Shown here piece after piece: positions 2-38,700 of a DNA stretch of 64,000 bases. Both the position numbers and the translations under genes were made by a program. The stretch is taken from positions 1,037-65,036 of the forward strand of contig JBBRAK010000001.1 in the NCBI GenBank assembly GCA_038206875.1, written 5' to 3'. This DNA is from Candidatus Saccharimonadales bacterium. Its GTDB lineage: Bacteria; Patescibacteriota; Saccharimonadia; Saccharimonadales; JBBQAJ01. Numbering within the stretch: position 1 is the stretch's first letter; each line of letters begins with the position of its first letter. The notes beneath the pieces were generated by a model that was not told where the DNA came from, did no database searches, and worked only from the letters and a program-made list of their open reading frames with translations.

Positions 2-1189
2 ATAACCGGCTCAGCTAGTGTTATACCTACAACTGGCACCGACTCAACTCTAAGCGGTGGTAAGGCAATAATGTTTGCCTCTGCTTCAAATCCGTCTGGA
101 AGCGATTTCCATACTTGTTATCCCGATGCCTTCTGTACACCTAGCAATCAGGTGGTCGTAATGAATGGTGCAAACATACGATATGTTGGCGAGAATACCA
201 ACGTAACTAGTCTAGCGCAAATGCAGAAACTGAAAACAACGGGTTTTAATTCGGTAAGATTGGTAATGGACTGGGAAGCTTTCCAGCCTTCATCGGGAAC
301 AGGAGGCTTTAGTACGACAGTTTTTAATAATCTTAAATCTGCAGTTGATAATGCTACATCGGCTGGTATTTATGTAATTTTAGATCCTATACACTTTGGC
401 GGTACGGGTACTTCTTGCGGTAGTTCAGCGCTATGCATTCCATCATGGGCAAGGGTTAGCTCCAGTGGAACGTATCAGGGGGCTGCAAAAAGTGTCCAAG
501 CTAATGCACGAGACTATATAGAAAAAGTAGCAGGCGACTACGCAAACAACCCAACGGTTGTTGCTATAGATCTTGTGAACGAACCAAAACCTGATCCATT
601 CAATGGTGATGACAACTTGCTAATGTCTATGTACAGCACTCTCATAGGATGGGCTAGAGGTAAGGATCCGGATAAAATTTTAATTGTTGAGCCTGACAGC
701 GGTGGTGGTTTGGCCCCATTGGCGGCGCTAAAGACACTCAGTAGGAAAGATAACATAGTGTTTTCGTTCCATCATTACTACGGAGGGGCTCATAACTCCA
801 ACGGAACACTTATTAGTGGCTGTAACCCTTCTGGATATAATAACTCCGGGGGTGATTGTGGTAATCATACATATGAAAATAATGCGGGGTACCCTGTAAT
901 TATACCAAGCGATCTTCGTGCTCAGTTCCAAGCCAATCTCGACGTACTTGCTGACCCAGCACTTAAACTTCCGCTTTGGGTGGGAGAATGGGGGATTATT
1001 GAGGGTGGTGCAAACTCAGTACAGTGGCGAAAAGACATGACAGCAATATTTAAGGATTTAAAAACCGGTCGCGCATATTGGCAATTTGCTAACTCTACAA
1101 ATGATCCACCGACTCAAAACATGTCGATGACGGTTGAGGGGTCCAGTACTCCTGGTGCGTTCAAATCTTGGATTAATGATATTCTATAA
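2..1189 (+). CDS. Glycoside hydrolase family 5 (cellulase/mannanase-type), 5'-truncated by window edge
   Basis: The frame is open from nt 2, so the true start lies upstream of the window. Upstream residues ITGSASVIPTTGTDSTLSGGKAI match the leader module of ORFs 7670 and 11889. GH5 hallmarks are present: DLVNEP (acid/base Glu), FSFHHYY and WVGEWG (nucleophile Glu). Confidence 0.8.
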   Translation: MTGSASVIPTTGTDSTLSGGKAIMFASASNPSGSDFHTCYPDAFCTPSNQVVVMNGANIRYVGENTNVTSLAQMQKLKTTGFNSVRLVMDWEAFQPSSGTGGFSTTVFNNLKSAVDNATSAGIYVILDPIHFGGTGTSCGSSALCIPSWARVSSSGTYQGAAKSVQANARDYIEKVAGDYANNPTVVAIDLVNEPKPDPFNGDDNLLMSMYSTLIGWARGKDPDKILIVEPDSGGGLAPLAALKTLSRKDNIVFSFHHYYGGAHNSNGTLISGCNPSGYNNSGGDCGNHTYENNAGYPVIIPSDLRAQFQANLDVLADPALKLPLWVGEWGIIEGGANSVQWRKDMTAIFKDLKTGRAYWQFANSTNDPPTQNMSMTVEGSSTPGAFKSWINDIL

Positions 1190-1277
1190 AAAGGCTACTA
1201 TCCAGAAAAGCTTAGGGCAGTGAACAGATTATTTATTGGACAATAATTTTTAAATAATAGTATTATACTTAAGAACA

Positions 1278-2384
1278 ATGAAATATTTAAAGAATATTAT
1301 TCACAGAAAACGAAACCTAGCGATATTTATTACGTTATTTGCTGTCATTGGGGCAGTTTCACTTATTATCAGTAGAGCCGCGACGCCAACATTAAGTATT
1401 GAACCAGAAACAGGGACAATACAACCTCCAGCTACGTCTATTGATGACACTTCTGCATCTGGTGGTAAGGCGGTTAAATTTAGCGTTGCGACTTCCGGAG
1501 GTGGTGTGTCCTCAGACACTCCATGTGTGGGAGCGTCGGCTCCAAGTCAGTGGAAGCACATTATCGTAGTTATGTTTGAGAATCACACGTGGTCAGAAGT
1601 TGTCGGTAGCTCATCCCCATATATAACCGGACTTATTAACAAATGTGGTGCAGCATATAGTGGTAGCAACGGGACTACCCAAAAAAATAACTGGCATGAC
1701 GGAAACTTTAATGTGGACGGTACGACCAATGGCAATTACAATTCCAAGCCGAGCTATGCAACTTTGACGAACGGCCTATCTCCTACAGTACACGGACTAA
1801 CAGATGACACATACTCTACGACAACAAGCGTCGATAATATCTACAAACAGTTGATTGCATCAGGAAAGAACGGCAAAGATTATTATAGTGGTTCGGCATC
1901 TAGTACACCCTGTTCGGGTTCAAACTTTAGTGGCGCTTATCACGATGCCATCAGGTACTACACCCCAACTATTGGTTCAGCATATTGCAATAGTCACGAT
2001 GTGCCTATAAGCACATTCATGAATGATGTAAACGGGACTTTGCCAGAGTTTTCATTGATACTCCCAACTAATGGTGAAAACATGCACGATAATAGTGTCT
2101 CTAGCGGGGATACTTGGGCCAAAAACTTCTTAAATCCAATATTTGACAGTGCTAGATATAAGTCTGGCGACACTGCCGTGTTCTTTTTGTTCGACGAGGA
2201 AACACCAATACCTAACGCTCTAGTAGCGCCATCTATAAAGCCAGGCTCGAAAGTACCGTCTCCCTCTGGAAACCCAATTAGCCATTTTTCAGCAACACGA
2301 ACCTGGACTGAGATGCTCGGCTTGCCTCCGTTGGGTGTGTCCGGCCAAGCCCCAAGCCTACTTTCTTTCTTCAACGGACAGTAG
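1278..2384 (+). CDS. Secreted phosphoesterase-family protein (acid phosphatase / PLC-like, PF04185-type)
   Basis: The N-terminus has a basic region, a TM segment and ISRAATPTLSIEPETGT...SGGKAVKF (the shared leader). The body has KHIIVVMFENHTWSEVVG, SKPSYATLTNG, LPEFSLILPTNGENMHD and SGDTWAKNFL, which match the phosphoesterase family pattern. Confidence 0.65.
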   Translation: MKYLKNIIHRKRNLAIFITLFAVIGAVSLIISRAATPTLSIEPETGTIQPPATSIDDTSASGGKAVKFSVATSGGGVSSDTPCVGASAPSQWKHIIVVMFENHTWSEVVGSSSPYITGLINKCGAAYSGSNGTTQKNNWHDGNFNVDGTTNGNYNSKPSYATLTNGLSPTVHGLTDDTYSTTTSVDNIYKQLIASGKNGKDYYSGSASSTPCSGSNFSGAYHDAIRYYTPTIGSAYCNSHDVPISTFMNDVNGTLPEFSLILPTNGENMHDNSVSSGDTWAKNFLNPIFDSARYKSGDTAVFFLFDEETPIPNALVAPSIKPGSKVPSPSGNPISHFSATRTWTEMLGLPPLGVSGQAPSLLSFFNGQ

Positions 2385-2397
2385 ATTCAAGCTGATT

Positions 2398-2931
2398 TTA
2401 GGTAGACTTTTCTAGGGATAGAATTTTCGAACCTGGCAGTGAAGCCAATAGCTTGCCTGAAACTAGAAGTTTGGAGTTTCTAACTCCGCTACCAATTACC
2501 ACGAGCTTTTTGTCTAGAACTGAGCCATCGACCAAAATAGGCCATCCAGCTGGTAATCCAACAGGTGTTATCGCACCATAGACCATTTTGGAATCGTTTA
2601 CAGCTTTGTCCATAGAGGCAAATGATATTTTGCGAGCACCTAGCTCGCGCCGAACTATCCCATTGATGTCAGCGCGAATAGTAGCTGGCACCATACATGC
2701 GGCTAGCCAAGATTTGTCAGAGCGTTTAGCTTCTACAATCACACAATTCACACAATCGTCTGGATCTATCTGGTAGGCCTCGCAAAAGGTTGCGGTGTCT
2801 GAGTAATTGTCGTCGATCTCGGCCACTAATATACCTTCTAGTCCTAATTTTTCAATTGTTTGTTTGGCGACTTCGCTAATCAGCCCTAAGTTGTCTTCTA
2901 CTGGTTTGAATTCTAAATTTCCAAGTTTCAT
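2398..2931 (-). CDS. YbaK/EbsC-type aminoacyl-tRNA trans-editing domain protein
   Basis: The 177-aa size fits the family. Motifs resemble YbaK/ProX deacylases: CVIVEAKRSD..., KISFASMDKAV and GAITPVGLPAGWPILVD. Confidence 0.6.
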   Translation of the reverse strand: MKLGNLEFKPVEDNLGLISEVAKQTIEKLGLEGILVAEIDDNYSDTATFCEAYQIDPDDCVNCVIVEAKRSDKSWLAACMVPATIRADINGIVRRELGARKISFASMDKAVNDSKMVYGAITPVGLPAGWPILVDGSVLDKKLVVIGSGVRNSKLLVSGKLLASLPGSKILSLEKST

Positions 2932-3042
2932 CTTTACTCCTTACAAATTAAATTATACTGGCTTTGCCAGAGTTATAACGAATTGAGTATACGAGCTAGA
3001 ATCCTTTGTAAGTTTTCATCTATTTATAATAACAAACCTGGG

Positions 3043-3573
3043 CTATCGGTGGGTGGCGATATAGTCCACTGCGTCTAGTAAGTCCGGGGCGGTGTGGGTA
3101 GCTTTACCGGATTTAACTTTGACGTTCCCTGTTTGCACAAGTATTGTTCTGGTTCCGGCGTTGACTCCGGTTTCTATATCTGTTGAGCGATCCCCAACCA
3201 TCCAAGAACTTGCCAGGTCAATGTCGTAATTCTTGGCAGCGTCTACTAACATTTTGGGCTTTGGTTTGCGGCATTCACAGGTATCGCCTTCGCCGTGCGG
3301 ACAAACATAGGTTTTGGTTATTTTTATCCCACTTTGAGCAATCATCTCGACTAACTTACCGTTAATTTCTTCAAAGTCAGACATTGATATGAGTCCTTCG
3401 GATATACCTGCTTGATTGGTGATAAAAAACACAGCGTAATCAAGGTTAGCCAGTTTCCTTAGAGCTTCAATTACGCCCGGCAATAGTTTAAGCTTATCGA
3501 CACTATCTACACGCTCATAAACTGGTATTCCAACGTTTATGGTCCCGTCTCTATCTAAAAATACAGCTTTCAT
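3043..3573 (-). CDS. gmhB: HAD-IIIA phosphatase, D,D-heptose 1,7-bisphosphate phosphatase (GmhB)-like
   Basis: It carries MKAVFLDRDGTIN (DxDGT nucleophile motif), FFITNQAGI, the Zn motif CPHGEGDTCECRKPKPKM and a GDRSTDIETG tail. Confidence 0.8.
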   Translation of the reverse strand: MKAVFLDRDGTINVGIPVYERVDSVDKLKLLPGVIEALRKLANLDYAVFFITNQAGISEGLISMSDFEEINGKLVEMIAQSGIKITKTYVCPHGEGDTCECRKPKPKMLVDAAKNYDIDLASSWMVGDRSTDIETGVNAGTRTILVQTGNVKVKSGKATHTAPDLLDAVDYIATHR

Positions 3574-3606
3574 AGTTTTAGAATAACAAATTTGGGGGAG
3601 AGTTCG

Positions 3607-4014
3607 CTAGGGTTGCTTTAGATGCTTGTCTATTAGCTCAATATCTTTAAGGTCTTTTGGGCGTCCAGAGGCGAGCTTCCACTTTCTTACTTCGTCTAGA
3701 GAGGCAAAAGCGATGCCGTCGACTATGTCAGCTGTCAACAGCAAATGTTCCAAAGTGGGAGTATAAGAACTAAAGTTCCATCTGAAATGCGCTTCAAAAT
3801 CACCATGAGTTAATGGATTGTCTTTGGGTCCTTTGTGGGCGAGCTTCCAGCCATTTTTCTGTAGTTGATAGAACAGCTCTTTGCTAACAAGCATATCTAT
3901 ATCTTGTGATTCCCTAATTCCTGCCAGTGCAAGAGGACAACTGCCAAAAACGACATAGGAATTTTTCGGTAGGTTCAAGCCTGCAACTTTACTAATAATT
4001 TCTTTTGACGTCAT
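3607..4014 (-). CDS. Minimal nucleotidyltransferase-fold protein (pol-beta superfamily), function unknown
   Basis: The pol-beta NTase signature is present as FGSCPLALAGIRESQDIDMLV (hG[GS]x9-13DhD). A C-terminal RPKDLKDIELI motif is also present. No HEPN partner is seen. Confidence 0.5.
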   Translation of the reverse strand: MTSKEIISKVAGLNLPKNSYVVFGSCPLALAGIRESQDIDMLVSKELFYQLQKNGWKLAHKGPKDNPLTHGDFEAHFRWNFSSYTPTLEHLLLTADIVDGIAFASLDEVRKWKLASGRPKDLKDIELIDKHLKQP

Positions 4015-4090
4015 TTATGAAATTATACTCTAGCGGGTATGTAGAATCTGCTATAATTTGTTAAATAATCGTAAGAGATGAGACAAAAAA

Positions 4091-4540
4091 ATGGTAGACA
4101 GGATTAATTTTGATATTTACGGAGAGGTCCTAACAAGGGCGTCAGCTCTAAGCTATGAGGCAGAGCGTGCTGGAATAGACCCTGATTCGGTTGCTATAAG
4201 GAACTCCATACTATCTGAAGTATCTGGGCGTTATGGCCCGAACAGTATGGTGGAAGCCGAATTAATAGTCGCCGCTCGTACCGCCGGTCGACTGGCAGTA
4301 CTGGCAGACAAAGCAGAGGCAGAGGGTTTTGGCAGTGCAGTAGCTCGGCTAGAACTGTGGTTAGGTGTGCAAATGGGCGACCCACTTGCTATGCCAGCTA
4401 TGGTGCCAGGCGGAATTGTTGACACAATTAGGGGGGTTGTTGGTATTGAGCCAATGCCCATATCATTGTTTGAACCGAGCGGGAAAGACATCCCTGAAAT
4501 CGCAGACTTGCCGGTGGCTGGCGAGCTCAGATTGGCATAA
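4091..4540 (+). CDS. Hypothetical protein (Ala/Gly/Arg/Pro-rich orphan)
   Basis: This is a 149-aa ORF with no recognisable motif. Its composition (A, G, R, E, P rich, no His) differs from its K/N/I-rich neighbours. Only weaker antisense ORFs overlap it. Confidence 0.5.
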   Translation: MVDRINFDIYGEVLTRASALSYEAERAGIDPDSVAIRNSILSEVSGRYGPNSMVEAELIVAARTAGRLAVLADKAEAEGFGSAVARLELWLGVQMGDPLAMPAMVPGGIVDTIRGVVGIEPMPISLFEPSGKDIPEIADLPVAGELRLA

Positions 4541-4614
4541 AACCTTAACAATGATGGTATAATTAATATAATCGATCTCTCGATACTTCGAACAAAGAAC
4601 TAGAAATAAAAAGT

Positions 4615-5766
4615 ATGAAACTAAAATATAAAATCAGTTTAATCCTATCAATCGTAATGGTATTTTTCGGAGTACTTTCAGTTGATGTGTCTACCGCCGC
4701 GGGAACAGCTTCTTTCAGCCTAAGCCCTAGTAGCGGGAGCTACAATATAAACACTAACTTTACGGTGACAGTTTATGAAAATAGCGGTTCAGATGCGGTT
4801 AGTGCGGTAGAGGCAGATCTAGCATATGATCAAGCGAAACTGCAGTTTGTCAGCACTGATACCAGTACCAGCGCTTTTGATGTTTCGTCCGTTAGCTCTG
4901 GGGGAAGCGGCTATGTTAATTTCCAAAGAAGTAAAACTGGCACACTTACCGGAAATCAAATTGTCGGAAAAGTGACATTCAAAGCCTTACTTGGCTCGGG
5001 TACTACCTCCGTAACATTTGCCCCAAGCTCGGCAATAAGTACATCAGGCAACACTAACATTTGGGATGAATTAACGACTGGCGGAACGTATACTATGACA
5101 ACGCCAGCACCGGTTAGTGACAGCAGTCCATCTGTTGGCACAACATCGAGTTCTAGCCCAAGTGCTGGTTCTGTCGCAAAAAGCAAACCGTCGTCAACAA
5201 CTGCTGATAGTTCGTCTGGCGCAGAGGCCGAAAAAAATAACTCATCTGAATCAGTTGTAGCAAATAACGATTCGACTTCGACTAGCTACTTGGTTTCTGT
5301 AAAAATAGTAAATAGTAAGGGCAAACCTCAAGTAGGTATAGACGTGGCACTGGGCAGTAACTACGCCAAAACTGATTCTACAGGGGTTGCGAGCTTTAGC
5401 GGGATTACGCCTGGAAGCTACAAGGTGAACGTACAGGGAGGCAAGATAATGGGCGATTCGACAATCGTCGTAGACGGCACTAAGTCAACTAAACAAGTCC
5501 AACATTTTGAGCTCAAGCTGAAAGCAGTTCTGGGTTTGCCAATATTGTTAGAAGTTGGAGGAGGAATAGTTCTAGTGATAATAATTGGTTACTTATTACT
5601 TCATAAGACTTCGTTTAGGCAAATGTTGGGAAAGCTGTCGGGTAAAAGTTCTGTACCAGATAAACATCCAGCTCCAACGTCTACAGTGTTTAGTGGTTCT
5701 GTTATTCAGCCGACGGTTGTTAGCACTGAGGCGAACGTTAAGGAGTCCAAGTTACAGAGTTATTAG
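4615..5766 (+). CDS. Surface protein: signal peptide + cohesin-like domain + S/T-rich linker + CarboxypepD_reg-like domain + TM anchor
   Basis: The signal peptide is MKLKYKISLILSIVMVFFGVLSVDVSTAAG. A cohesin-like segment reads FSLSPSSGSYNINTNFTVTVYENSG..VSAVEADLAYDQAKLQFVS..GKVTFKAL. It also has VKIVNSKGKPQVGIDVAL...TDSTGVASFSGITPGSYKV and a TM segment ILLEVGGGIVLVIIIGYLLL. Confidence 0.6.
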   Translation: MKLKYKISLILSIVMVFFGVLSVDVSTAAGTASFSLSPSSGSYNINTNFTVTVYENSGSDAVSAVEADLAYDQAKLQFVSTDTSTSAFDVSSVSSGGSGYVNFQRSKTGTLTGNQIVGKVTFKALLGSGTTSVTFAPSSAISTSGNTNIWDELTTGGTYTMTTPAPVSDSSPSVGTTSSSSPSAGSVAKSKPSSTTADSSSGAEAEKNNSSESVVANNDSTSTSYLVSVKIVNSKGKPQVGIDVALGSNYAKTDSTGVASFSGITPGSYKVNVQGGKIMGDSTIVVDGTKSTKQVQHFELKLKAVLGLPILLEVGGGIVLVIIIGYLLLHKTSFRQMLGKLSGKSSVPDKHPAPTSTVFSGSVIQPTVVSTEANVKESKLQSY

Positions 5767-5787
5767 TTTCTACTACAAGCTTCAATC

Positions 5788-5946
5788 CTAATACGTTTTA
5801 GTCACGACTTGCCGGGTTTGGTGCGAGGTTAGCTTTTCAATCAAATCGTGAGGAAAGTTAGAGATGTATTCGTCAATATTTTTGTAAGAGTTCTTAGGCA
5901 TCACCCAAGTACATACCAATGAAGATGCAGACTTTACGACTGTCAT
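5788..5946 (-). pseudogene. Possible remnant of a DUF1801/YdhG-like gene (N-terminal fragment only)
   Basis: Manual reverse translation gives MTVVKSASSLVCTWVMPKNSYKNIDEYISNFPHDLIEKLTSHQTRQVVTKTY*. The NIDEYISNFP...IEKL segment resembles the DUF1801 N-terminus (tvdEYIasfP..vqe.l). Family members are about 120 aa, and this reading frame stops after 37-52 aa. Confidence 0.3.
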
Positions 5947-6004
5947 TGACAAATTAAGTGGTTTATGCTAGAATTATATCTGTTAAACAAAAATAAACAT
6001 AAAC

Positions 6005-7531
6005 ATGTCAGAACAACAATCTACGCGTATACCCGATGTCGACCGTTCGCAGATGGGTCATCAAGTTCTTCAGGCTGTCGATGAGGGTTTTATAGCTATG
6101 AATCCTGAAACGGCTGATAGGTTTGTAGCGCCTTGGGTAAGTCGCTATCAGAGGTACGTCAGTAATCAGGAAATGGGTCTACCCCAGAAAATTTTAGACG
6201 ATTCGAAAAAGTTAATGACGGCAGAGAAGCTATCTACCTTGCCCGCAGAATACTTAGAACAACCAGGGGTTGCGTATTCCTTTGACCGGCTAATTACTAA
6301 CTATGCTTATGACAGTGGTCAACTAAAAGAATTGGTGAATGAGCTGGAAGTTAAGCCTATGGAAGAAGTCCCCGAGCGCAAGCTTCTTGATTTGATTCAC
6401 GGTGAAAATCGAAAACCGAGCAAACCCTACATGTTCTCCAGAGTGTTTCTGGGGTTGGATGGCGATATAACTGATGACAAATTTCAGAAATTAATAAAGC
6501 TACACGCCGACGCGCTAAAGGTAGCCCAAGAACACCTGGATTCGCAACTTCCAAGACTAAAGAATGATTTTTATACAAAACTCGATGAACTAATTGGCAC
6601 GGGGGTATTGCCCAAAAATATAACTTTTCCGGGTCAAGATGGCGACCCAGACTCTAACGGCGAAGCGAGGTTACGACAACTAGAAGTTATCGCAAGCGAC
6701 CCTGTAATTAACAGATTAAGTGATAGAGGCGGGCATTATGATGCACAGGAAAATGCCGTGTATATTGATGCAGACCGGGTTTTAGGTAGTGGGCGCTCGC
6801 GAACTATGGAAGACACCTATACACACGAAATGGTTCATGCTCATTCCGGCCACACGGTAATACTGAACGGAAAATCAATGTTTGAGGCGGTTGCGGAAAT
6901 CGATGGAGGTACGGATAATTACCGCGCAGAATCAGGGCAAAGTGAGGATGTCACGGAAGTTTATAGGAATGATCCAGATACTTTTGGCCCAATTCTGGGC
7001 GTCACTAGAGTAGGTTTGATGAAAAAGGTTAACATCATCAATGAGGCGTATACCGAATGGGCGACTATGTTGCTGAAAGACAGGCCGTATGATCAAACTA
7101 CTCTGTGGTCTGATTACGAGAGACTGATAGACGACGGCACTAATCTAAACGTAGAAATTACTGGACAGGCCCATTTATATGAAGAATACGGGGATGTATA
7201 TTTGCCAAACAGAATTATTATGGCCGGTTTGGTAGCCCACGGTATAGACCCAATAGTAATTGGTGAAGCCTACTTTGAATCTTACGAACCTAAGCTCAAC
7301 AACCCTAATCGTGGAGCTGGCAGTACTGTACCGGCTAGGCGCGCTTTAGACGTTGCAATTTCCAAGATTACTCCCTATAAATCGCTCGAACAACTACAAA
7401 AAAGGCTTTGGGTGCAGGCCAGAAAGCGGTGGCCGAAAGTGCGCGATTATAATGACCTTGCTTGGGGTCAGGCATTAATTTTGAGTGAAATTTTGAGAAC
7501 TGGTACAGAAGAGTTTGCTTCCCCCGGTTAA
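6005..7531 (+). CDS. Orphan zincin-like metallopeptidase candidate (HExxH), no signal peptide
   Basis: This is a 508-aa ORF. HEMVH lies at nt 6824-6838 in the context TYTHEMVHAHSGH. A possible third-ligand motif INEAYTEW sits about 60 aa downstream, which is a gluzincin-like arrangement. I recognise no other family. Confidence 0.55.
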   Translation: MSEQQSTRIPDVDRSQMGHQVLQAVDEGFIAMNPETADRFVAPWVSRYQRYVSNQEMGLPQKILDDSKKLMTAEKLSTLPAEYLEQPGVAYSFDRLITNYAYDSGQLKELVNELEVKPMEEVPERKLLDLIHGENRKPSKPYMFSRVFLGLDGDITDDKFQKLIKLHADALKVAQEHLDSQLPRLKNDFYTKLDELIGTGVLPKNITFPGQDGDPDSNGEARLRQLEVIASDPVINRLSDRGGHYDAQENAVYIDADRVLGSGRSRTMEDTYTHEMVHAHSGHTVILNGKSMFEAVAEIDGGTDNYRAESGQSEDVTEVYRNDPDTFGPILGVTRVGLMKKVNIINEAYTEWATMLLKDRPYDQTTLWSDYERLIDDGTNLNVEITGQAHLYEEYGDVYLPNRIIMAGLVAHGIDPIVIGEAYFESYEPKLNNPNRGAGSTVPARRALDVAISKITPYKSLEQLQKRLWVQARKRWPKVRDYNDLAWGQALILSEILRTGTEEFASPG

Positions 7532-7669
7532 AACTCCTAGTGCTTGCAAGGGTCTGCCACAATATTCGGATCGTTTATCCACAGCTTTGAGCTGAGCTTA
7601 TACGAAAAAGATTGCTATTAGCATTTTGCCAATCTATACTCAAGCCTAAGCAGTTAGGCAGTAGTATAT

Positions 7670-8710
7670 ATGAGCAAAAGAAAAGCTAGTATAAAAAGAA
7701 CGAGGGAGTTAATGCAAAACAAGCGCAACGTATTTATATTCGTGGGAGTGTTTGCTTTAATCGGTGTTGCAACACTGCTTATAAGTAAAGTAGCTACACC
7801 AGCCTATAGTGTAGAGGCCGAAGATGGAACAAGAACGGGCTCAGCCAGCATAATTCCAGCATCAGGAACTGATTCAACGTTAAGTGGTGGTAGGGCAATT
7901 GCATTTGGAAGCGCCGTAACACCACCACCATCCACAGGCCAACCACCCACTGCAGTTACTGGCGGAGCGACATGGAATACACTGTGGGCCGATGAGTTTA
8001 ACGGCTCCAGTATAGATACAAGTAAATGGAATGTTCTGAATAATAGTAACTACGGAACTGGAAACAACGAAGAAGAATGTTATATGACTGGTAATACTGT
8101 TGTCTCTGGAGGATCGTTAAGACTCATCGGAAAACAAGACTCAAATAACGGTTGTTCTGGTTACAAATATACTTCCGGATTTATAACTACCAGCAAACTT
8201 GGCGGTTCGCAAAAGTTTAAGTTCAAACAAGGTTATACCGAAATCAGGGCTAGGCTACCCAAGGGTGGTGGTTGGTGGCCAGCATTTTGGCTGGTAGGTG
8301 CCGACACCGCACCAGGTTGGCCTGCATATGGAGAGATAGATGTTATGGAAGCATACGGTACATACCCATGCTGTATTGAAGAAACCTTCCACTGGGATAA
8401 CGGTGGGCACAAACAAGAAGGAGGTGCGTCTAGAGATGTAGGTAGTACAGATAATACCGATTGGCATACCTACGGAGTCAATTGGACTGCTAGCAAGCTT
8501 GATTTTTACATCGACGGCGTAAAGAAGCAAACTTTCACTCCTTCCGATTCTGGTGCGACAGCTGCGCTGGGATATGAGCATACAATTGATATAAACCTAG
8601 CTATAGGCGGTGATGGACCAAGAAAATATCATGGCTGGAATGGAACCTGGGCTAGCGGTGATCTTCCTGGAACATATGAAGTTGATTATGTAAGAGTATG
8701 GCAACCATGA
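7670..8710 (+). CDS. Secreted glycoside hydrolase family 16 (beta-glucanase/laminarinase type)
   Basis: It has the shared leader (TM segment, then ATPAYSVEAEDGTRTGSASIIPASGTDSTLSGGRAIAFGS). It also has WADEFNGSSIDTSKWN, the GH16 catalytic motif GEIDVMEAYG (ExDxxE) and a DYVRVWQ end. Confidence 0.85.
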   Translation: MSKRKASIKRTRELMQNKRNVFIFVGVFALIGVATLLISKVATPAYSVEAEDGTRTGSASIIPASGTDSTLSGGRAIAFGSAVTPPPSTGQPPTAVTGGATWNTLWADEFNGSSIDTSKWNVLNNSNYGTGNNEEECYMTGNTVVSGGSLRLIGKQDSNNGCSGYKYTSGFITTSKLGGSQKFKFKQGYTEIRARLPKGGGWWPAFWLVGADTAPGWPAYGEIDVMEAYGTYPCCIEETFHWDNGGHKQEGGASRDVGSTDNTDWHTYGVNWTASKLDFYIDGVKKQTFTPSDSGATAALGYEHTIDINLAIGGDGPRKYHGWNGTWASGDLPGTYEVDYVRVWQP

Positions 8711-8726
8711 TAAAGGAGTTATGATA

Positions 8727-11357
8727 ATGTATAAAATTATTAAATCATTAACTAGTAATGGCAGTCGAAACCTGCTACTTGCTATGGCGTTTTCTATTGC
8801 AGTGTTTGGGGTTGCTTTTGCGTCTCCTCAATCTGTTAGTGCAGCATGTACAGCGCCATCAGCTCCATATGGTTCTGTCAGCTATACGTCTAATGTAACT
8901 CAAGCAGGAACTTACCGAATTGCAGTTCGACTTAAGGCGCCTACAACTACAGATAACTTTTTGGCAATTGATGTTGGTAACAACTGTAATATCAAGTATC
9001 AATTGGCCGGGTCAGATAATGTAGCTAACACTTGGAAATGGATTAGTTACAAAGACGGCAACAGTGCTAGCGTTGTCAATCTTAACCTAACCGCTGGCAA
9101 CAATGTTATCAACTTATACGGTACTGCACCTGGTGTTCAGGTTGACCGCGTATTACTTATGAGCGACACGGCTTGCCTACCAACCGGGACTGGTGACAAC
9201 TGCTATACTCCGCCCGACACCACACCCCCAACAGTTAGCCTTACTGCTCCGCAGGCTGGTAGCACAGTTCAGGGAACAGCCGCCACAGTAAGTGCTAATG
9301 CAACGGATGCACAAGGGATTAGTAAAGTAGAGTTTTACTCAGGAACGACATTAATTGGTAGTGACACGACATCACCATACTCAGCTAGCTGGAATACTAC
9401 AACAACGGTAGATGGGCCATATTCACTGACAGCCAAAGCATTCGACACTTCTAACAATTCTACGACTAGTTCAGCAATATCGGTTAAGGTTACAAATACA
9501 CCACCGCCACCTACTCCAGATACGGAGCCACCAAGTACTCCTGCGAATTTGCAGGCGACACTTGCTACTGGAACAACTACTCCTCAAGCAAATTTGACCT
9601 GGACGGCAAGCACCGATAACGTGGGCGTCAAAAGTTACGACGTTTACAAAGGGACAACTCTCTTAAAAACTGTTACTACAAATGCAACAACAGATAGTGG
9701 TTTAACAATCGGACAAACATACTCTTATTATGTTATAGCTAAAGATGCGGTCGGTAACGCTTCTGCGAAGTCCAATACGGCCTCAATTAGTATTCCGGAT
9801 TCTGTAATTCCTACGGTAAGTATTACAAGTCCATCCGCCGGCACAACTGTGAGCGGAACGGTGAATGTTGCTGCGACCGCGGGCGACAACATAGGTGTTG
9901 CCAAAGTTCAATTCTTGGTTGACGGAGTAGTACAATCACCAGCAGATACTAGTGCGCCATATGCCTTCAGCTGGAACACAACAGCGCTTGGAAATGGTGC
10001 TCACACTATTGCGGCGCAATCATACGACGCTGCAGGCAACAAATCATTGGTGGACAGCAAGTCCGTTACTGTTCAAAATGGTGACACAACGCCACCTTCT
10101 GCTCCCGGCAATTTCAAAGCAGTTGCTAGTGCGTACAACAAAGTTGTACTTACTTGGACCGCAGCAACAGATGCGAGTGGCATAAAAGATTACCTGTTGT
10201 CCAGAGATGGTGTATGGGTAGGTCTCATGGGCGCCAACACCACAACCTACACAGATACAAATGTTACAGCCACAACTAAGTACAGCTATGAGCTCATAGC
10301 CATAGATAATGCCGATAACCTTAATTCAGCCACAACTTCGGTTACTACTCCAGATGCACCCGATTCTCAAGCTCCATCAGCACCAGCTAATCTCACGGCA
10401 ACAGCTGTAAGTACAACTCAAATAAACCTTTCATGGCAAGCAAGCACCGACAATATTGGGGTCAAAAACTACGAAGTTTACAGGGGTAGCACCAAAGTAG
10501 CTACTGTGACAACAACAAGCTTCGGTGACACTGGATTAAGCCCTGACACGAGCTACAGCTATACAGTAAAAGCTGTAGACGCTGCTGGAAACAGTAGTGC
10601 AGATTCAAATACTGCAACCGTCAAGACTCCAGCGCCACCTGTAACTTCTACAAATGTAGCACTGAACAAACCCGCAACAGTTTCATCTGTCGAGTCTACT
10701 AATTACTCAGCTTCACGTGCAGTAGATGGAGATGCTGGTACTCGATGGGCAAGTGCGCTCAAATCCGACGGTAGCGGTGGTAGCGATCCAGAGTGGATAT
10801 ATGTTGACCTTGGTTCTAGCTACGATGTTAGCGGAGTTAAGCTTAACTGGGAGGCGGCTTATGGCAAGGCATACCAGGTACAAGTATCAACCGACGCATC
10901 CAGCTGGCAGTCGATATACAACACAACTAGCGGAGATGGCGGTGTAGATGATTTGACTGGCCTAACTGGATCGGGTCGCTATGTTCGAATGTATGGTACT
11001 GCTAGGGGAACGAAATGGGGATATTCACTGTTGGAGATGGAAATCTACGGTAAGCCTAGCAACGTAACTCCACCGCCACCACCTCCTCCACCGATTCTGT
11101 TGAATGGGGATGTGTATGGTCAGGTTAGGGATTCGAGCACACAAAAAACTCTAGGTTCAGTCTACGTATCAATCTATTACAGTGGTAGTACTCACCGTGT
11201 GAAAACTAGCAGTACAGGTAACTATAGGATGACTGGTGTTCCTGCAGGTACATACTCGTTTAAGTATGTTAGAACCAATTACATTACACTTAATTCAGAT
11301 GGAACAATCCCGTCGGGTTCGACTTTGACCAAGAACATAACGATGGTTCACAAATAA
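8727..11357 (+). CDS. Large secreted multidomain glycan-binding protein (CBM-like + Ig-like x2 + FN3 x3 + F5/8 type C discoidin + poly-Pro + CarboxypepD_reg-like)
   Basis: The ORF opens at 8721, but the ATG at 8727 has better spacing to AGGAG (8714-8718). The signal peptide ends ...SPQSVSA/ACTAP. Ig-like repeats read PTVS(L/I)T(A/S)P..G(S/T)TV.G...V.A.A.D..G(I/V).KV(E/Q)F..., followed later by SPYSASWNT or APYAFSWNT. FN3 repeats read PSxPxNL.A....T.(A/I)NL(T/S)W.AS(T)DN(V/I)GVK.Y(D/E)VY. The discoidin segment is ALNKPATVSSVES..AVDGDAGTRWAS. A PPPPPPPP run lies at about nt 11068-11095. Confidence 0.8.
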   Translation: MYKIIKSLTSNGSRNLLLAMAFSIAVFGVAFASPQSVSAACTAPSAPYGSVSYTSNVTQAGTYRIAVRLKAPTTTDNFLAIDVGNNCNIKYQLAGSDNVANTWKWISYKDGNSASVVNLNLTAGNNVINLYGTAPGVQVDRVLLMSDTACLPTGTGDNCYTPPDTTPPTVSLTAPQAGSTVQGTAATVSANATDAQGISKVEFYSGTTLIGSDTTSPYSASWNTTTTVDGPYSLTAKAFDTSNNSTTSSAISVKVTNTPPPPTPDTEPPSTPANLQATLATGTTTPQANLTWTASTDNVGVKSYDVYKGTTLLKTVTTNATTDSGLTIGQTYSYYVIAKDAVGNASAKSNTASISIPDSVIPTVSITSPSAGTTVSGTVNVAATAGDNIGVAKVQFLVDGVVQSPADTSAPYAFSWNTTALGNGAHTIAAQSYDAAGNKSLVDSKSVTVQNGDTTPPSAPGNFKAVASAYNKVVLTWTAATDASGIKDYLLSRDGVWVGLMGANTTTYTDTNVTATTKYSYELIAIDNADNLNSATTSVTTPDAPDSQAPSAPANLTATAVSTTQINLSWQASTDNIGVKNYEVYRGSTKVATVTTTSFGDTGLSPDTSYSYTVKAVDAAGNSSADSNTATVKTPAPPVTSTNVALNKPATVSSVESTNYSASRAVDGDAGTRWASALKSDGSGGSDPEWIYVDLGSSYDVSGVKLNWEAAYGKAYQVQVSTDASSWQSIYNTTSGDGGVDDLTGLTGSGRYVRMYGTARGTKWGYSLLEMEIYGKPSNVTPPPPPPPPILLNGDVYGQVRDSSTQKTLGSVYVSIYYSGSTHRVKTSSTGNYRMTGVPAGTYSFKYVRTNYITLNSDGTIPSGSTLTKNITMVHK

Positions 11358-11375
11358 AAGGAGTGGGGAAATATA

Positions 11376-11870
11376 ATGAATGAAATTCAAGACAGTGAAA
11401 CGCAAATGGAGCAAAGCCAGCCGGCACCACAGCCTGTAACTGGTGGACAGAACTCAAAGAAAAAGTTTGTTGTTGTCACAATTTTAGTACTGATTATTGT
11501 AGGTGTTATTGTTGCTGGAGTATTTGTTAGGATGAAGAGCGATAATAAAAAGACTGCAGAGCCTGCTTCAACTACTAGTCCATCTGAAACGCGAGAAGTT
11601 GCAAAAGTCAGTATTACCCCAGGTGGATTCCTGCCAGCGACTATAAAGGTCAAAGTCGGAACCCAGGTAAACTGGACCAATGATGATAGCGCAAATCATC
11701 AAATTGCAGCTGATCCGTTCAAGACTCATGAAATGCTTCCAGAGCTGTACGACGAAGAGCCAATAGGACCGAATGATTCATTTGGATTTACTTTTGAAAA
11801 GGCAGGTACATACACATATCACGACGAACTAAACCCTGGCAAATTTTCTGGAACTGTTATAGTCGAATAG
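11376..11870 (+). CDS. Membrane-anchored cupredoxin-like domain protein lacking the type-1 Cu cysteine
   Basis: It has a TM segment FVVVTILVLIIVGVIVAGVFV. The plastocyanin-like pattern is ATIKVKVGTQVNWTNDDSANHQIA...FTFEKAGTYTYHDELNPGKFSGTVIVE. The usual YxCxxHxxM motif is replaced by YHDELNPGKF. Confidence 0.6.
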   Translation: MNEIQDSETQMEQSQPAPQPVTGGQNSKKKFVVVTILVLIIVGVIVAGVFVRMKSDNKKTAEPASTTSPSETREVAKVSITPGGFLPATIKVKVGTQVNWTNDDSANHQIAADPFKTHEMLPELYDEEPIGPNDSFGFTFEKAGTYTYHDELNPGKFSGTVIVE

Positions 11871-11888
11871 CACCGAGGGAGACTTGGG

Positions 11889-12953
11889 TTGAGTAAAAAA
11901 TTCCAAAAAAAACGCAAAATAGTAGTGTTTGTTGTTCTTTTTGCGGTAATTGGGGCTACATTTCTAATCATAAGCAGAGCAGCCACGCCAACTTTTAGCA
12001 TAGAGCCAGAAAACGGAACTAGAACCGGCTCTATAAGCGTTATTCCCGCCATTGGAACTGACTCTACGCTAAGTGGCGGAAAAGCCATAACTTTTGGTAG
12101 TGCTGTAGTTCCTCCTACTGGCTGTAACCCCACTTCACCTCCTGACGGTTCTGCTCCAAGCAACCCAACTCCCTGTAGATATGGCCAATCAAATGGTCCT
12201 AGCGGAACCTGGAATTTTAACTGGCAAGACGAATTTAGTGGTACTGCGTTAGATTTTACCAAATGGAGACCAAATTATCTGGGAGGAAGTGATTCAGACA
12301 TAACGAAAGCAAGTAATAGCAGTATGCAGAACTGCGAAGATCCTGCACAAACAAAGGTAAACGGAGGAACTCTTAAACTTACGCTTGTGCAGAGGAGTTG
12401 CAAAGCAAACAATGGAACAACGTATCCCTATGCTTCAGGTTATGCCAGCACGCATGCAGATATAGTTATTACAAGTTCATTCTACATTGAGACAAAAATG
12501 TATATGCCTCCTGCAAATAGCACTACCGGTTGCGCAAACTGGCCTGGTATCTGGACCAATGGGGTGGCAAATGGAGTTAGCTGGCCGACTTTCCTAGAGA
12601 GCGATGTAATGGAGTGCTTGGGAGGGGAAGCGAAAGCTAACGTTCACGCTGGTCCAGGGGCTAACCAGGATGATTGGAAGAAAACAATTGGTGGAATAGG
12701 ACAGAATAGTGGTTGGCATGTTTTTGCCGCAAGTTTAGTAAAGAGCGCTAAGAGTGGCTGTCCTTCGCAAGCTCCGGATTCTGCAATTTTGACTTATTAC
12801 TACGATGGTGTGCAGATTGGGTCGCCCTATGAGACGTGTTACAAAAATACTGGCCAATTTATTATGCTCCAAAACGATATTCAGTCGGGTAGTTTAAAGA
12901 ACACTCTGCCTAGTACTGTTGAGTTTGACTACGTTAGGGTTTGGGCCAGGTAA
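11889..12953 (+). CDS. Secreted GH16-like / concanavalin-type glucanase
   Basis: It starts at TTG. It has the shared leader (AATPTFSIEPENGTRTGSISVIPAIGTDSTLSGGKAITFGS). It also has WQDEFSGTALDFTKW, the ExDxxE-type motif LESDVMECLG and a FDYVRVWA end. Confidence 0.7.
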   Translation: MSKKFQKKRKIVVFVVLFAVIGATFLIISRAATPTFSIEPENGTRTGSISVIPAIGTDSTLSGGKAITFGSAVVPPTGCNPTSPPDGSAPSNPTPCRYGQSNGPSGTWNFNWQDEFSGTALDFTKWRPNYLGGSDSDITKASNSSMQNCEDPAQTKVNGGTLKLTLVQRSCKANNGTTYPYASGYASTHADIVITSSFYIETKMYMPPANSTTGCANWPGIWTNGVANGVSWPTFLESDVMECLGGEAKANVHAGPGANQDDWKKTIGGIGQNSGWHVFAASLVKSAKSGCPSQAPDSAILTYYYDGVQIGSPYETCYKNTGQFIMLQNDIQSGSLKNTLPSTVEFDYVRVWAR

Positions 12954-35713: not shown

Positions 35714-38700
35714 ATGACCGTAATACAGCCAGAGGCTGTCACATCTACCTCTCCGGACTCCTCAAGTTCGGGTAAGGGAAATACTACCGACACATCGGCG
35801 TCCGTGGTCCAGTATGGCCTACCCCAAAATAACTTCCCCCTAGAAGATCTAGAATTTCATGCAGAAGGTAACTCTCCCAGCGCACCTCAAGTTGCTACTG
35901 CAGACGGAGTGTCTCCTAAGCGTGGTACTCTAGCCTTTTCTGGCCGTAAGGCAATGATAGTATCAATTGCTGTAACGGTGCTGGTAACTCTACTTACCGG
36001 TGTGAGTATGTTGTTACTGGCTAAAAATAGCCCAAAGACTAAGCAGTCCGGTCAAACAAATGTACAAACTCAAGACGTAACTCTAAAAGATGCTGAGATT
36101 AGAGCCCTTCCCAACGAATTGCAGGGAGCAAACCAATCTCTACTGGTAAATGGTGATTTAGTAACCAGGGGTAATTTAAAGTTTTCAAACAGTAATTTTA
36201 TATCTGTTCTTAAGGTCGAAAACTCTACGGCTAATCAGACATACGCATTACCAAACTCCAGCGGTACTATCTGTCTGGATAGTAATAATTGTAGCTATGT
36301 TACGTCGAATCAACTGCAAGTTCTTCAAACTCAGGTGGCAACAAACGCCGGCTCCCAAGGGAGTGGCGTAACGGCTTTAAATAACCAAGCCGGCAACATA
36401 ACACTGCAAGGTAGCGGAGGTTTAACAATTAGCGGTTCTGGCGGAAGTTTAAATTTAAATTTGCCACAAGATTTAACAACATCTGCAAGTCCCCAGTTTG
36501 CCGGGCTTACGGTAGCCGGGACCGTAAACGCCAGCAGTATTACTAGTTCAGGCCAGATTACATTTTTTGCAAATGGTCAAAGCTATATACTACCAACAAC
36601 TGGGGGTCCCGGGCAGACCATCTGTACGACTGGTATAACCTGTACGGCAGGTGGCGGAGAAGCCGTAGCTTTGGGTCCAAATGTGGCTGGGGTGTCGACC
36701 GCTCAACAAAACGCCTCGCCAATTAACTCATCGATATTTATAAATAACACTGGCGGTGCTAATTTATTGCAACTTCAATCAAGTGGTTCAGATGTGTTTT
36801 TAGTTGACAGTAGTGGAAATGTCACTGCAACGTCGTTCATCGGAACCGGCTCTGGACTTACTAGCCTAAATGCATCAAATATTAGTTTAGGGACATTGGC
36901 AGACAACAGACTTAGCGCAAATGTTGCGCTGTTGGATCGGCTTGGACAAACATTCACAGGAACTAATTTGTTCCAAAACACAAGCAACTCAGCGAATGCC
37001 GTACAAATAAAAACTTCCGCAGGAAGCGGTGGAGTCAGTTTGTTTAACGCGGATACAACTACTAACAGCGTATCTTTTGGTGGTTCAGCATTGTTCCAAA
37101 ACGCTACTGATTCTACAACTGCCTTTCAAATAAAAAGATCTGCTAGCTCTGGTGGAGATGCTCTATTGAGCGTCAGTACGTCTTTTATACCATCAATTAC
37201 AGTGGGTGGAACCGGTTCGGCAATCACGAATATACAGTCTGGAAATGGTGGAATCAGCGTTCAGCCTGCAGGCACAAGTGGCGGTGCAGTTACTATTCAG
37301 GCAGGAAACTACACGGGCAATACCGGCGGTAGTGTGTCAATTAATGCCGGAAGTGGTACTACCAACGGAAATATTAATATTGGAACTACCACAGCAAATA
37401 ATATAAGCATCGGCTCAACATCGTTAGCAGGTACCCTGTCTTTAGAAACTGGGACAGGACCAATTAACATAGGCACGGCTACTGGCAGCCGGACCATACA
37501 AATAGGTAGCTCAAGTTCTAGCTCTGGGACTCAGACGATAAATATTGGGAACAACAACACCAGTGGAGGCACAACAAATATAACGTTAGGTTCTGGCTCC
37601 TCAGCTACTGGCGGTACAACAACATTACAATCTAAGGGTGGGCTTAACTTGGGAAACAGTATTAGCTCAAGTATAGCTATTCAGCCAGCTTCGGGGGGAA
37701 CTGTGGGCATTGCAAATAATAATTCGGGTGCAACAATTAATATTGGCGCCACCGGTAGTAGTGCAACCACCACCACCGTTCATATAGCCGATTCGACAGG
37801 TAATGCTGCCCAAGCAGTCACAATTGGTGGAACTGGCAGTACTAGCACCACTACGCTACAGGCAGCCAATGCCACCGGCACTGGAGTTGCAATTACCGAC
37901 AATAGCACAACTTCCGGTACTGCACTACAAGTTACCGCAAACGGACTAAACACAGGCAATGGTGTAAATATATCTACAACACGTTCATTTGCTAGTGCTG
38001 GAGAATTAATAAGTGGAAACGTGCTTAACGTCAACCGTACACTGACAACTGGATTCAATAACCCAACCTATACGACACCACAGTTTGATGCATCATGTGA
38101 GTCGAATGTTACTAGTGGAATCGCTACTACTACGGATTGTTTAAGTTCATTGCTTCTATCCAAAACGACATCTGGACACGGTGGTCGAATTCTCCTTGTA
38201 TTTATAAGTACTATCAATAGCGCAGGCCCAACTTCTGTATCGTATCAACGTGACGGCGTTACTATTACGAACTTGTCCTTGTTGAGGGGTTCGTACGCGA
38301 CTGGTTCTGGCGGTGGAGTTTCGACATTCTCGTTTGTATATTACAAACTCCTAGACAGTGGTCTACCAATATCTGATGCAAATATTTGCGCTAGTGGCGA
38401 TGGACATTATTGTAGTATTCGTTCTACCGCCGCAAGTGGTACATGGCAGACCATGAACGCCGTTGCATACTACAATGTTGTCCAATCTGCACCGAATAGC
38501 AGTGGTACGGCTACTACAACATGTACAGGTGGAAACTCTTCCTGTGCCGCAACCACCACGATTACTCCCAGTAGCGTAAATGATTATGTGCTGGATTATG
38601 CCGGCACAGGAGACTCAAACAGTAATTACTATAATTTATATGACCCTTGGAATCACTATACACTTAGTAATCCATCGGGAACAACTACGTCGGAAGCGTG

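Follow-up and report, generated by a model that had tools for sequence, protein, structure and literature searches.

A conserved tag behind the predicted signal peptides of exported enzymes in Saccharibacteria, a candidate docking or retention element

Introduction

The tiny Saccharibacteria live as epibionts on other bacteria, and to our knowledge there is no account of the way in which their few extracellular enzymes are retained and directed. The question is raised by a 64,000-nucleotide stretch from a Candidatus Saccharimonadales bacterium (contig JBBRAK010000001.1, positions 1,037 to 65,036; hereafter the window, meaning the whole stretch that was analysed), in which the first 13 kb form a + strand cluster of exported-protein genes. 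An original prediction, made from the letters of the window, had noticed that four of the encoded hydrolases begin with the same signal peptide and the same short module, here called the tag. What is such a tag doing at the head of enzymes with different folds? The leader cassette that contains it belongs to no defined family and is best described as akin to leader or docking tags and to segments derived from CBM35, a family of carbohydrate-binding modules (CBMs).

Results

A common N-terminal cassette on four exported enzymes

Three complete enzymes of the cluster open with a common cassette of ~70 residues, in which a basic n-region, a ~19-residue hydrophobic run with the motif F..FA.IG, a junction, a few residues ending in S and the core tag are followed by a linker and the catalytic domain. 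A fourth carrier, an enzyme of glycoside hydrolase family 5 (GH5), is cut by the window start. The carriers are composed of the following parts, with a slash marking the predicted cut.

2-1189, + strand: GH5 enzyme, open reading frame (ORF) truncated by the window start (Pfam PF00150, E 7e-27)
2..76, + strand: final 25 residues of the 32-aa GH5 tag, translation ITGSASVIPTTGTDSTLSGGKAIMF
1278-2384, + strand: ORF of the phosphoesterase-family protein p1278
1278..1379, + strand: p1278 predicted signal peptide, aa 1-34, n-h-c layout with F..FA.IG, predicted cleavage SRA/ATP by the -3/-1 rule
1380..1481, + strand: p1278 predicted mature N-terminus, ATPTLS (1380-1397) and the canonical 28-aa core tag IEPETGTIQPPATSIDDTSASGGKAVKF (1398-1481), hidden Markov model (HMM) E 7e-39
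1482..2384, + strand: p1278 Gly/Ser/Thr linker and Phosphoesterase-family (PF04185) catalytic domain, Pfam E 1.3e-12
7670..7792, + strand: signal peptide of the GH16 enzyme p7670 read from the translated sequence, aa 1-41, SKV/ATP with a non-canonical V at -1
7793..7906, + strand: p7670 ATPAYS (7793-7810) and 32-aa core tag VEAEDGTRTGSASIIPASGTDSTLSGGRAIAF (7811-7906), HMM E 8e-45
7907..8710, + strand: p7670 Pro/Thr linker and GH16 catalytic domain, PF00722 E 1.9e-17
11889..11981, + strand: signal peptide of the GH16-like protein p11889 read from the translated sequence, TTG start, SRA/ATP
11982..12095, + strand: p11889 ATPTFS (11982-11999) and 32-aa core tag IEPENGTRTGSISVIPAIGTDSTLSGGKAITF (12000-12095), HMM E 8e-44
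12096..12953, + strand: p11889 Pro-rich linker and divergent GH16-like domain (BLASTP to p7670, 33% identity, E 1e-47)

The cassette coordinates were verified by translation. The complete GH5 N-terminus, MRKALSQGKAIKSLIHRNPKIWVFVAVFAIIGTAMLIISKAATPTLSFEAEDGTITGSASVIPTTGTDSTLSGGKAIMF, was read from contig L009, an independent assembly that was found by exact look-up of the p1278 protein, is DNA-identical to the window across the overlap and extends upstream. Because this identical contig shows GH5 with a complete cassette, all four copies are real. An HMM of the three full copies, run against the six-frame translation of the 64 kb, finds just these four (E 8e-45, 8e-44 and 7e-39, and 7e-10 for the GH5 fragment); the next-best match, at E 0.016, lies on the antisense strand of one cassette. 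The common start noticed at the outset is thereby borne out for all four genes, and the description of the carriers as four unrelated hydrolases is corrected to three unrelated folds, because p7670 and p11889 are, by alignment, distant GH16-type paralogues. They share 33% identity over a BLASTP alignment that includes the cassette and 67% over the cassette alone.

The signal-peptide consensus is F..FA.IG...L..S[RKH]A/ATP. In the window, the junction reads S-[RK]-A/A-T-P, with p7670 (S-K-V/A-T-P) as the exception. Six residues, ATP and three more ending in S, separate the predicted cleavage site from the core tag. The core follows the consensus [ILVF]-E-[PA]-E-x-G-T-x4-A-x4-D-x2-A-S-G-G-x-A-[VI]-x-F, and an example of a mature tag sequence is ATPTFSIEPENGTRTGSISVIPAIGTDSTLSGGKAITFGSAV. 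The core is 28 aa long in p1278 and 32 aa long in GH5, p7670 and p11889, which share a four-residue insertion (...S.IP..GTDSTLSGG...). Its second motif begins 13-17 residues past the GT, nearer than the ~20 residues originally estimated.

Distribution, cargo and conservation

A profile of the three window cassettes, signal peptide included, was searched exhaustively against 1.84 billion representatives of 50%-identity clusters. It matched 1053 representatives at E<=1e-3 and 80 at E<=1e-10. In all 150 of the matches listed, it is the N-terminus that aligns, and a tag-only HMM detects a single copy in each of these, beginning at residue 26-64. A scan of a species-genome collection with narrow patterns derived from the cassette gave two matches, both in metagenome-assembled genomes of Candidatus Saccharibacteria; the leader cassette has so far been found in Saccharibacteria. 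A metagenome scan added four short contigs. A word-indexed protein search returned no match with the 77-aa N-terminus and eight short fragments only with a 97-sequence alignment.

No defined domain or propeptide family accounts for the tag. No named model of Pfam-A 2025 or NCBIfam 20.0 covers it; Pfam gives no match over the tag in the four window proteins at E<=0.1 and none for the consensus tag at E<=10. Literature searches found no description of the tag. Among 108 carriers scanned with Pfam, the cargo comprises Beta_helix (10), GH16 (9), GH5 and GH26 (5 each), alginate lyase and Metallophos (3 each), together with other polysaccharide lyases, GH39, GH71, apiosidase, GDSL esterases and PIG-L. 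Almost all of these are extracellular enzymes that cleave glycans or esters, and their folds are many and unrelated, which rules out a fold-specific domain.

A pattern located the core in 137 relatives, and its length is exactly 28 residues in 107 of them. In these 107, E2 and E4 are conserved at 100%, G6 at 79%, A12 at 78%, D17 at 91%, A20-S21 at 99%, G22-G23 at 86%, A25 at 74% and F28 at 98%; the figures for E2/E4, positions 20-21 and F28 partly follow from selection, because the pattern that chose the sequences demanded E at 2 and 4, A/S then S/T at 20-21 and F/L at 28. The signal peptides of the same relatives conserve F (84%), G (94%) and L (75%), and their junctions conserve S/T at -3 (84%), A at -1 (98%) and A-T-P (79%, 75% and 84%). 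In a MAFFT alignment of the full-length matches, both E residues and the D, A, S and F residues are at least 90% conserved, and in MAFFT tag alignments, which were built from pattern-selected sequences, E, E, S and F are invariant. Cores of 28 aa have a mean net charge of -2, no Trp and few Tyr or Cys residues. The 30 residues past the core are rich in G, T, S, A and P.

Two tag genes of unusual form were observed in related loci. P0155 is a 77-aa ORF, found at L003 10001-10234 and L004 1456-1689, in which a signal peptide and a tag are followed by a stop; two independent samples yielded the identical ORF, which sits amid a cluster of dockerin-bearing enzymes. At L002 181-1509, a tagged gene has an in-frame TAG (367-369) within the tag and then an intact ORF for 380 aa, and is either a fresh pseudogene or an assembly error.

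Predicted signal peptide and cleavage

The N-termini display the sequence features of Sec export and signal peptidase I processing, with a K/R-rich start, a hydrophobic run of ~19 residues and small residues at -3/-1. The cleavage motifs in the window are SRA/A in p1278, SKA/A in GH5 (from L009), SRA/A in p11889 and SKV/A in p7670. Signal peptidase I would cut at A/ATP and leave the tag as the mature N-terminus. The original prediction had placed the cut at this site, and the -3/-1 residues of the relatives agree with it, with the qualification that the cleavage of p7670 is uncertain because V occupies its -1 position.

Three other leader types were considered and rejected. A lipoprotein signal does not apply to the window copies, none of which has a Cys near the junction. 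The twin-arginine translocation (Tat) motif S/T-R-R-x-F-L is absent from all four, and the sequences lack the type IV prepilin leader, G/F-T-L-x-E before a hydrophobic helix.

Tat-like n-regions were found in three relatives, P0085, P0111 and P0128, where TRREFL, TRKEFL and TRKDFL precede an S[HR]A/ATP junction and a tag. Conversely, cohesin-like-domain proteins and dockerin-ended enzymes of L002 and L003 use the same signal-peptide type with no tag. Signal peptide and tag are separable, and because the same signal-peptide type occurs without it on the L002 and L003 proteins, the tag would not be needed for export. This separability, together with the Tat-like leaders on the same junction, points to processing at A/A and to a mature protein that starts with the tag.

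Age and selection

Between the three long copies (58 aligned codons), the proportion of synonymous differences (pS) is 0.73-0.83, which is saturated, and that of nonsynonymous differences (pN) is 0.17-0.18. Of the identical amino acids that have a codon choice (28-29), the same codon is used at 8-10, or about 30%. Because synonymous sites are saturated and pN is low, the similarity must be old and selected; the cassette is evidently held by purifying selection, as originally proposed, and recent duplication or gene conversion is rejected. Related genomes also retain the tag, contrary to the absence from orthologues that would have spoken against the original proposal. It is kept in P0006, a GH5 orthologue of 61% identity, and in P0031, a p11889 orthologue of 66% identity, each in another genome.

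The 32-aa form of the core is found in 3 of 136 relatives (2%) versus three of the four copies in this genome, and the closest GH5 and GH16-like orthologues elsewhere carry the shorter form of 27-28 aa. A subtype that is clustered in one genome while its synonymous sites are saturated speaks against recent gene conversion. It points to a genome-specific constraint common to the copies, such as one co-evolving partner that all of them must fit.

Relation to CBM35 and CBM6 and structure prediction

A profile of 105 mature tags, searched against all PDB sequences, gave six weak matches only.

7BYX, 7BYS and 7BYV, residues 305-332: E 0.08
2WZ8, residues 19-38 of chain 2WZ8_A: E 0.10
7EHG, residues 4-35: E 0.95
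6F2P: E 1.9

All of these entries represent carbohydrate-binding modules of the CBM35 type or a related one, and in 7BYX/7BYS/7BYV, 2WZ8 and 7EHG the tag profile matches the N-terminal end of the module; for 7BYX we take residues 305-332 to be the start of its CBM35, and the 6F2P match presumably falls within a binding module. An alignment of the tag with one complete CBM35 sequence by hhalign reached a probability of 0.7% and did not recover the register. The likeness to the first strands of CBM6/CBM35 modules that had been noticed by eye is therefore sub-threshold and consistent, and the tag may have originated from the first strands of a CBM35. With 28-32 aa versus ~120, it is also, as had been said, too short for a full CBM, and it is not a member of CBM35 or CBM6 by either length or profile cut-off.

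In the relative P0108, the tag is directly followed by two apparently complete CBM35 modules, each with an EAE...ASGG start. Pfam CBM_35 matches two stretches of the protein, the best at aa 82-217 (E 4e-18). In this architecture, the tag coexists with full CBM35s and does not replace them.

An AlphaFold model of p7670 was built from a 65-row alignment that is deep over the cassette. The signal is helical in the model. The tag region (aa 41-90) contains two short strands (59-63 and 75-79), with block means of 51-65 in the predicted local distance difference test (pLDDT), whereas the 10-residue block means of the GH16 domain are mostly 71-95, with a low-confidence stretch at aa 231-260. Because its pLDDT is low and its strands are few, the tag probably does not pack on the enzyme. 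The low confidence would fit a segment that folds only on binding and argues against a part of the catalytic fold.

Dockerins and cohesins in related loci

The enzyme kinds that carry the tag also occur with dockerins. The 44-kb contig L003, which comes from a related organism, encodes seven enzymes with C-terminal dockerins, none of them tagged, among which are beta-helix-like repeat proteins and a phosphoesterase+GH16 fusion. The same contig encodes a scaffold protein with two cohesin-like repeats and a membrane helix. Dockerins were defined by two calcium-binding repeats of the form D-x-N-x-D-G-x-[VI]-[NDST]-x2-D, an expression that the repeats of L003 and P0157 fit by reading. The corresponding regular expression found no dockerin-like motif in the 150 listed tagged proteins or in the 64-kb window, and the window tagged proteins have no Pfam match to dockerin type I (PF00404). 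In two dockerin-rich loci, the tag genes are only defective or truncated (the L002 gene with the in-frame TAG; the 77-aa signal and tag ORF of L003, and also of L004). Few as they are, these cases suggest that the tag and the dockerin stand in for one another on the same kinds of enzyme.

Membrane-anchored cohesin-like proteins are encoded at four places.

Window 4615-5766, + strand: p4615, between the tagged genes, with a C-terminal membrane helix
L002 4489-5784: cohesin-like protein
L003 13822-16113: cohesin-like protein
L010 8511-9995: cohesin-like protein

The N-domain of p4615 resembles the cohesin-type proteins of L002, L003 and L010 by eye, in its sequence pattern, and its C-terminal hydrophobic helix is visible in the sequence. 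A Pfam cohesin match (PF00963) is on record for the L010 protein alone and is weak; p4615 has no Pfam cohesin match at E<=0.1. The window thus contains a cohesin-like protein and no dockerin motif. In the related loci, cohesin-like membrane proteins adjoin many dockerin-ended enzymes, and the arrangement looks like a minimal cellulosome-like system in Saccharibacteria-type genomes.

Discussion

A candidate docking or retention tag

We favour, tentatively and at somewhat less than an even chance, a docking or retention tag at the mature N-terminus that folds on binding and has a role like that of a dockerin. Cleavage by signal peptidase I at A/ATP would make the tag the free N-terminus of the exported enzyme. 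The tag, presumably lacking a stable fold by itself, would fold on binding and contribute strands to a putative partner on the cell surface, and its invariant E, E and D residues may hold calcium. Glycan- and ester-cleaving enzymes would in this way be tethered to the tiny epibiont cell and kept from diffusing, which is the role that dockerins have on enzymes of the same types in related genomes.

Several points weigh against this proposal. The strict placement behind the cleavage site, with one copy per protein, fits a propeptide or export role equally well, and dockerins and CBMs are less bound to position than the tag. Since the signal peptide formed part of the search profile, ascertainment accounts in part for the restriction of the matches to the N-terminus. 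The V at -1 of p7670 makes the predicted cleavage there uncertain. The similarity to CBM35, plausible as it is, lies below significance (E 0.08-2). The mutual exclusion of tag and dockerin rests on a regular expression and three loci, and P0155, the ORF with only a signal peptide and a tag, is left unexplained by docking.

Alternative explanations

The alternative that survives best, and still an unlikely one, is a propeptide or export-competence leader, an acidic stretch that aids translocation or keeps the enzyme inactive or unfolded and is afterwards removed or idle. The single copy directly behind the predicted cleavage site, the net charge of -2, the want of a stable fold in AlphaFold and the presence on many unrelated catalytic folds would all be expected of such a leader. 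However, the same type of signal peptide exports tag-free proteins, and thirteen positions conserved at ~74% or more far exceed what a charge effect needs. The tag is followed by variable G/S/T/P linkers with no conserved second cleavage site, and it is implausible that a single chaperone or inhibitor would serve folds as different as GH5, GH16, beta-helix and phosphoesterase.

It is less probable still that the tag binds a ligand directly, as a minimal CBM in which a calcium-stabilised hairpin attaches to an epibiont or host polysaccharide or a cell-wall polymer. The carriers are carbohydrate-active enzymes, the weak PDB matches to N-terminal strands suggest descent from CBM35/CBM6, and the acidic E, E and D residues are invariant. 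Against this, 28 aa make up about a quarter of a CBM35, the sugar-binding residues of which lie mostly outside the tag-like segment. The tag has no Trp and few Tyr residues, lacks the conserved aromatic platform or disulfides of small CBMs and is modelled with low confidence.

We also regard as doubtful, and slightly more so, an uncleaved signal anchor with a juxtamembrane stalk, in which the hydrophobic helix would remain embedded in the membrane and the tag would form a conserved segment close to its surface. A hydrophobic stretch of ~19-20 residues has membrane-spanning length, although Gram-positive-type signal peptides are commonly this long. The F, A and G positions of the helix are conserved (G 94%, F 84%) as if they made specific contacts, and p7670 has V at -1, but A at -1 (98%) and S/T at -3 (84%) are the signature of signal peptidase I, and the same S[HR]A/ATP junction stands behind Tat-like leaders.

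A split CBM35 is a speculative, very improbable version of strand donation, in which the tag gives its strands to a CBM35-like domain that lacks them. The candidate partner is encoded between the tagged genes.

8721-11357, + strand: p8721, 878-aa multidomain surface protein
8847..9215, + strand: p8721 N-terminal four-cysteine domain, aa 43-165, speculative candidate partner, CBM35-like in fold, with roughly the first 37 model positions missing

The first three strands of the module, including the E-x-E calcium ligands, would come from the free N-terminus of each enzyme and complete the headless domain of p8721 and its relatives in trans, with a similarly low probability for this arrangement. 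The two parts match adjacent, non-overlapping segments of one chain, the tag residues 19-38 of 2WZ8_A and the p8721 N-domain residues 54-135. Pfam CBM_35 aligns with the N-domain only at model positions 38-103 (E 0.004, below the family cut-off), and hhalign against a full CBM35 starts at position 36 (probability 56%). Every top Foldseek match of the N-domain model is a CBM35 or CBM6, an indicative result only since the model was built from four sequences and has a mean pLDDT of 56. Domains of this type recur in P0157-P0159, at L002 1850-2821, at L003 10866-13805 (internal) and in P0013 (two matches); tag and N-domain lie within ~10 kb of each other in the window, L002 and L003, and in one protein in P0013. 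However, all the sequence matches are sub-threshold and the model is poor. Copies of the N-domain are embedded in a multidomain enzyme (L003) and are also present in proteins that end in a dockerin; its four cysteines are conserved, as would be expected of an autonomous domain, and L010 encodes it with no tag closer than 10 kb. A lipobox reading of the N-terminal Cys of p8721 was rejected, since polar residues lie between this Cys and the hydrophobic stretch. A split CBM35, if true, would give Saccharibacteria a docking system parallel to cohesin-dockerin and working like the donor-strand complementation of pili.

That the tag is a functionless remnant of a deleted CBM35, or that its 5' end was duplicated or converted recently, is hardly credible. 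Its likeness to CBM35 N-terminal strands suggests an origin by truncation, but the saturated synonymous change with pN ~0.18 contradicts a relic or a recent copy, and the tag is kept in more than 1000 clusters and by orthologues.

Other genes in the window

Three further products of the window are recorded here.

6005-7531, + strand: between the tagged genes, 508-aa protein with an HExxH motif (THEMVHAH), no obvious signal peptide and no Pfam match
11376-11870, + strand: cupredoxin-like protein
35714-40951, + strand: 1745-aa Gly/Ser/Thr-rich protein with a single N-terminal membrane helix, probably a surface fibre or adhesin

Significance and comparison with known systems

The tag, for which Pfam and NCBIfam have no model, heads more than 1000 clusters of secreted proteins, mostly hydrolases and lyases, and offers a simple sequence handle for listing the secretome. 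A docking tag would point to a surface receptor and to an assembly of enzymes at the cell surface unlike cohesin-dockerin, and the 28-residue segment could serve as a small natural protein tag. If it is only a leader or propeptide, the family would still be worth a database model and would be of modest interest.

Among known systems, CBM35 and CBM6 (PF16990, PF03422) appear to share with the tag the E-x-E start, the G-T turn and the A-S-G-G-x-(A/Y)-V strand, at the spacing of the CBM35 N-terminus. They differ in that the 28-32 aa of the tag correspond to about the first quarter of a sandwich of ~120-130 aa, that a G/S/T/P linker directly follows the tag core, and that the tag always stands at the predicted mature N-terminus and has no autonomous fold in AlphaFold. 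The YSIRK-G/S signal peptides of Gram-positive cocci likewise have conserved signal residues across the exported proteins of one lineage, here F..FA.IG and S[RKH]A. The cassette has another motif, placed in the hydrophobic core and not in the n-region, and its tag lies beyond the cleavage site.

The N-terminal extension of chaperone-usher pilins resembles the tag as a short strand-forming segment at the mature N-terminus, which could complete the incomplete beta-sandwich of another protein. Complementation by the tag is purely hypothetical, however; the envelope is different, no chaperone or usher is present, and the tag would contribute three strands where the pilin extension contributes one. 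The type I dockerin (PF00404) is C-terminal and has a duplicated calcium-binding loop-helix motif, whereas the tag is N-terminal, without such a motif and without sequence similarity, and the analogy is one of function only. On that level, both are short acidic appendages with a flexible linker on many unrelated secreted carbohydrate-active enzymes; the two did not occur together in the carriers and loci compared, and the same kinds of enzyme carry dockerins in related Saccharibacteria-type loci.

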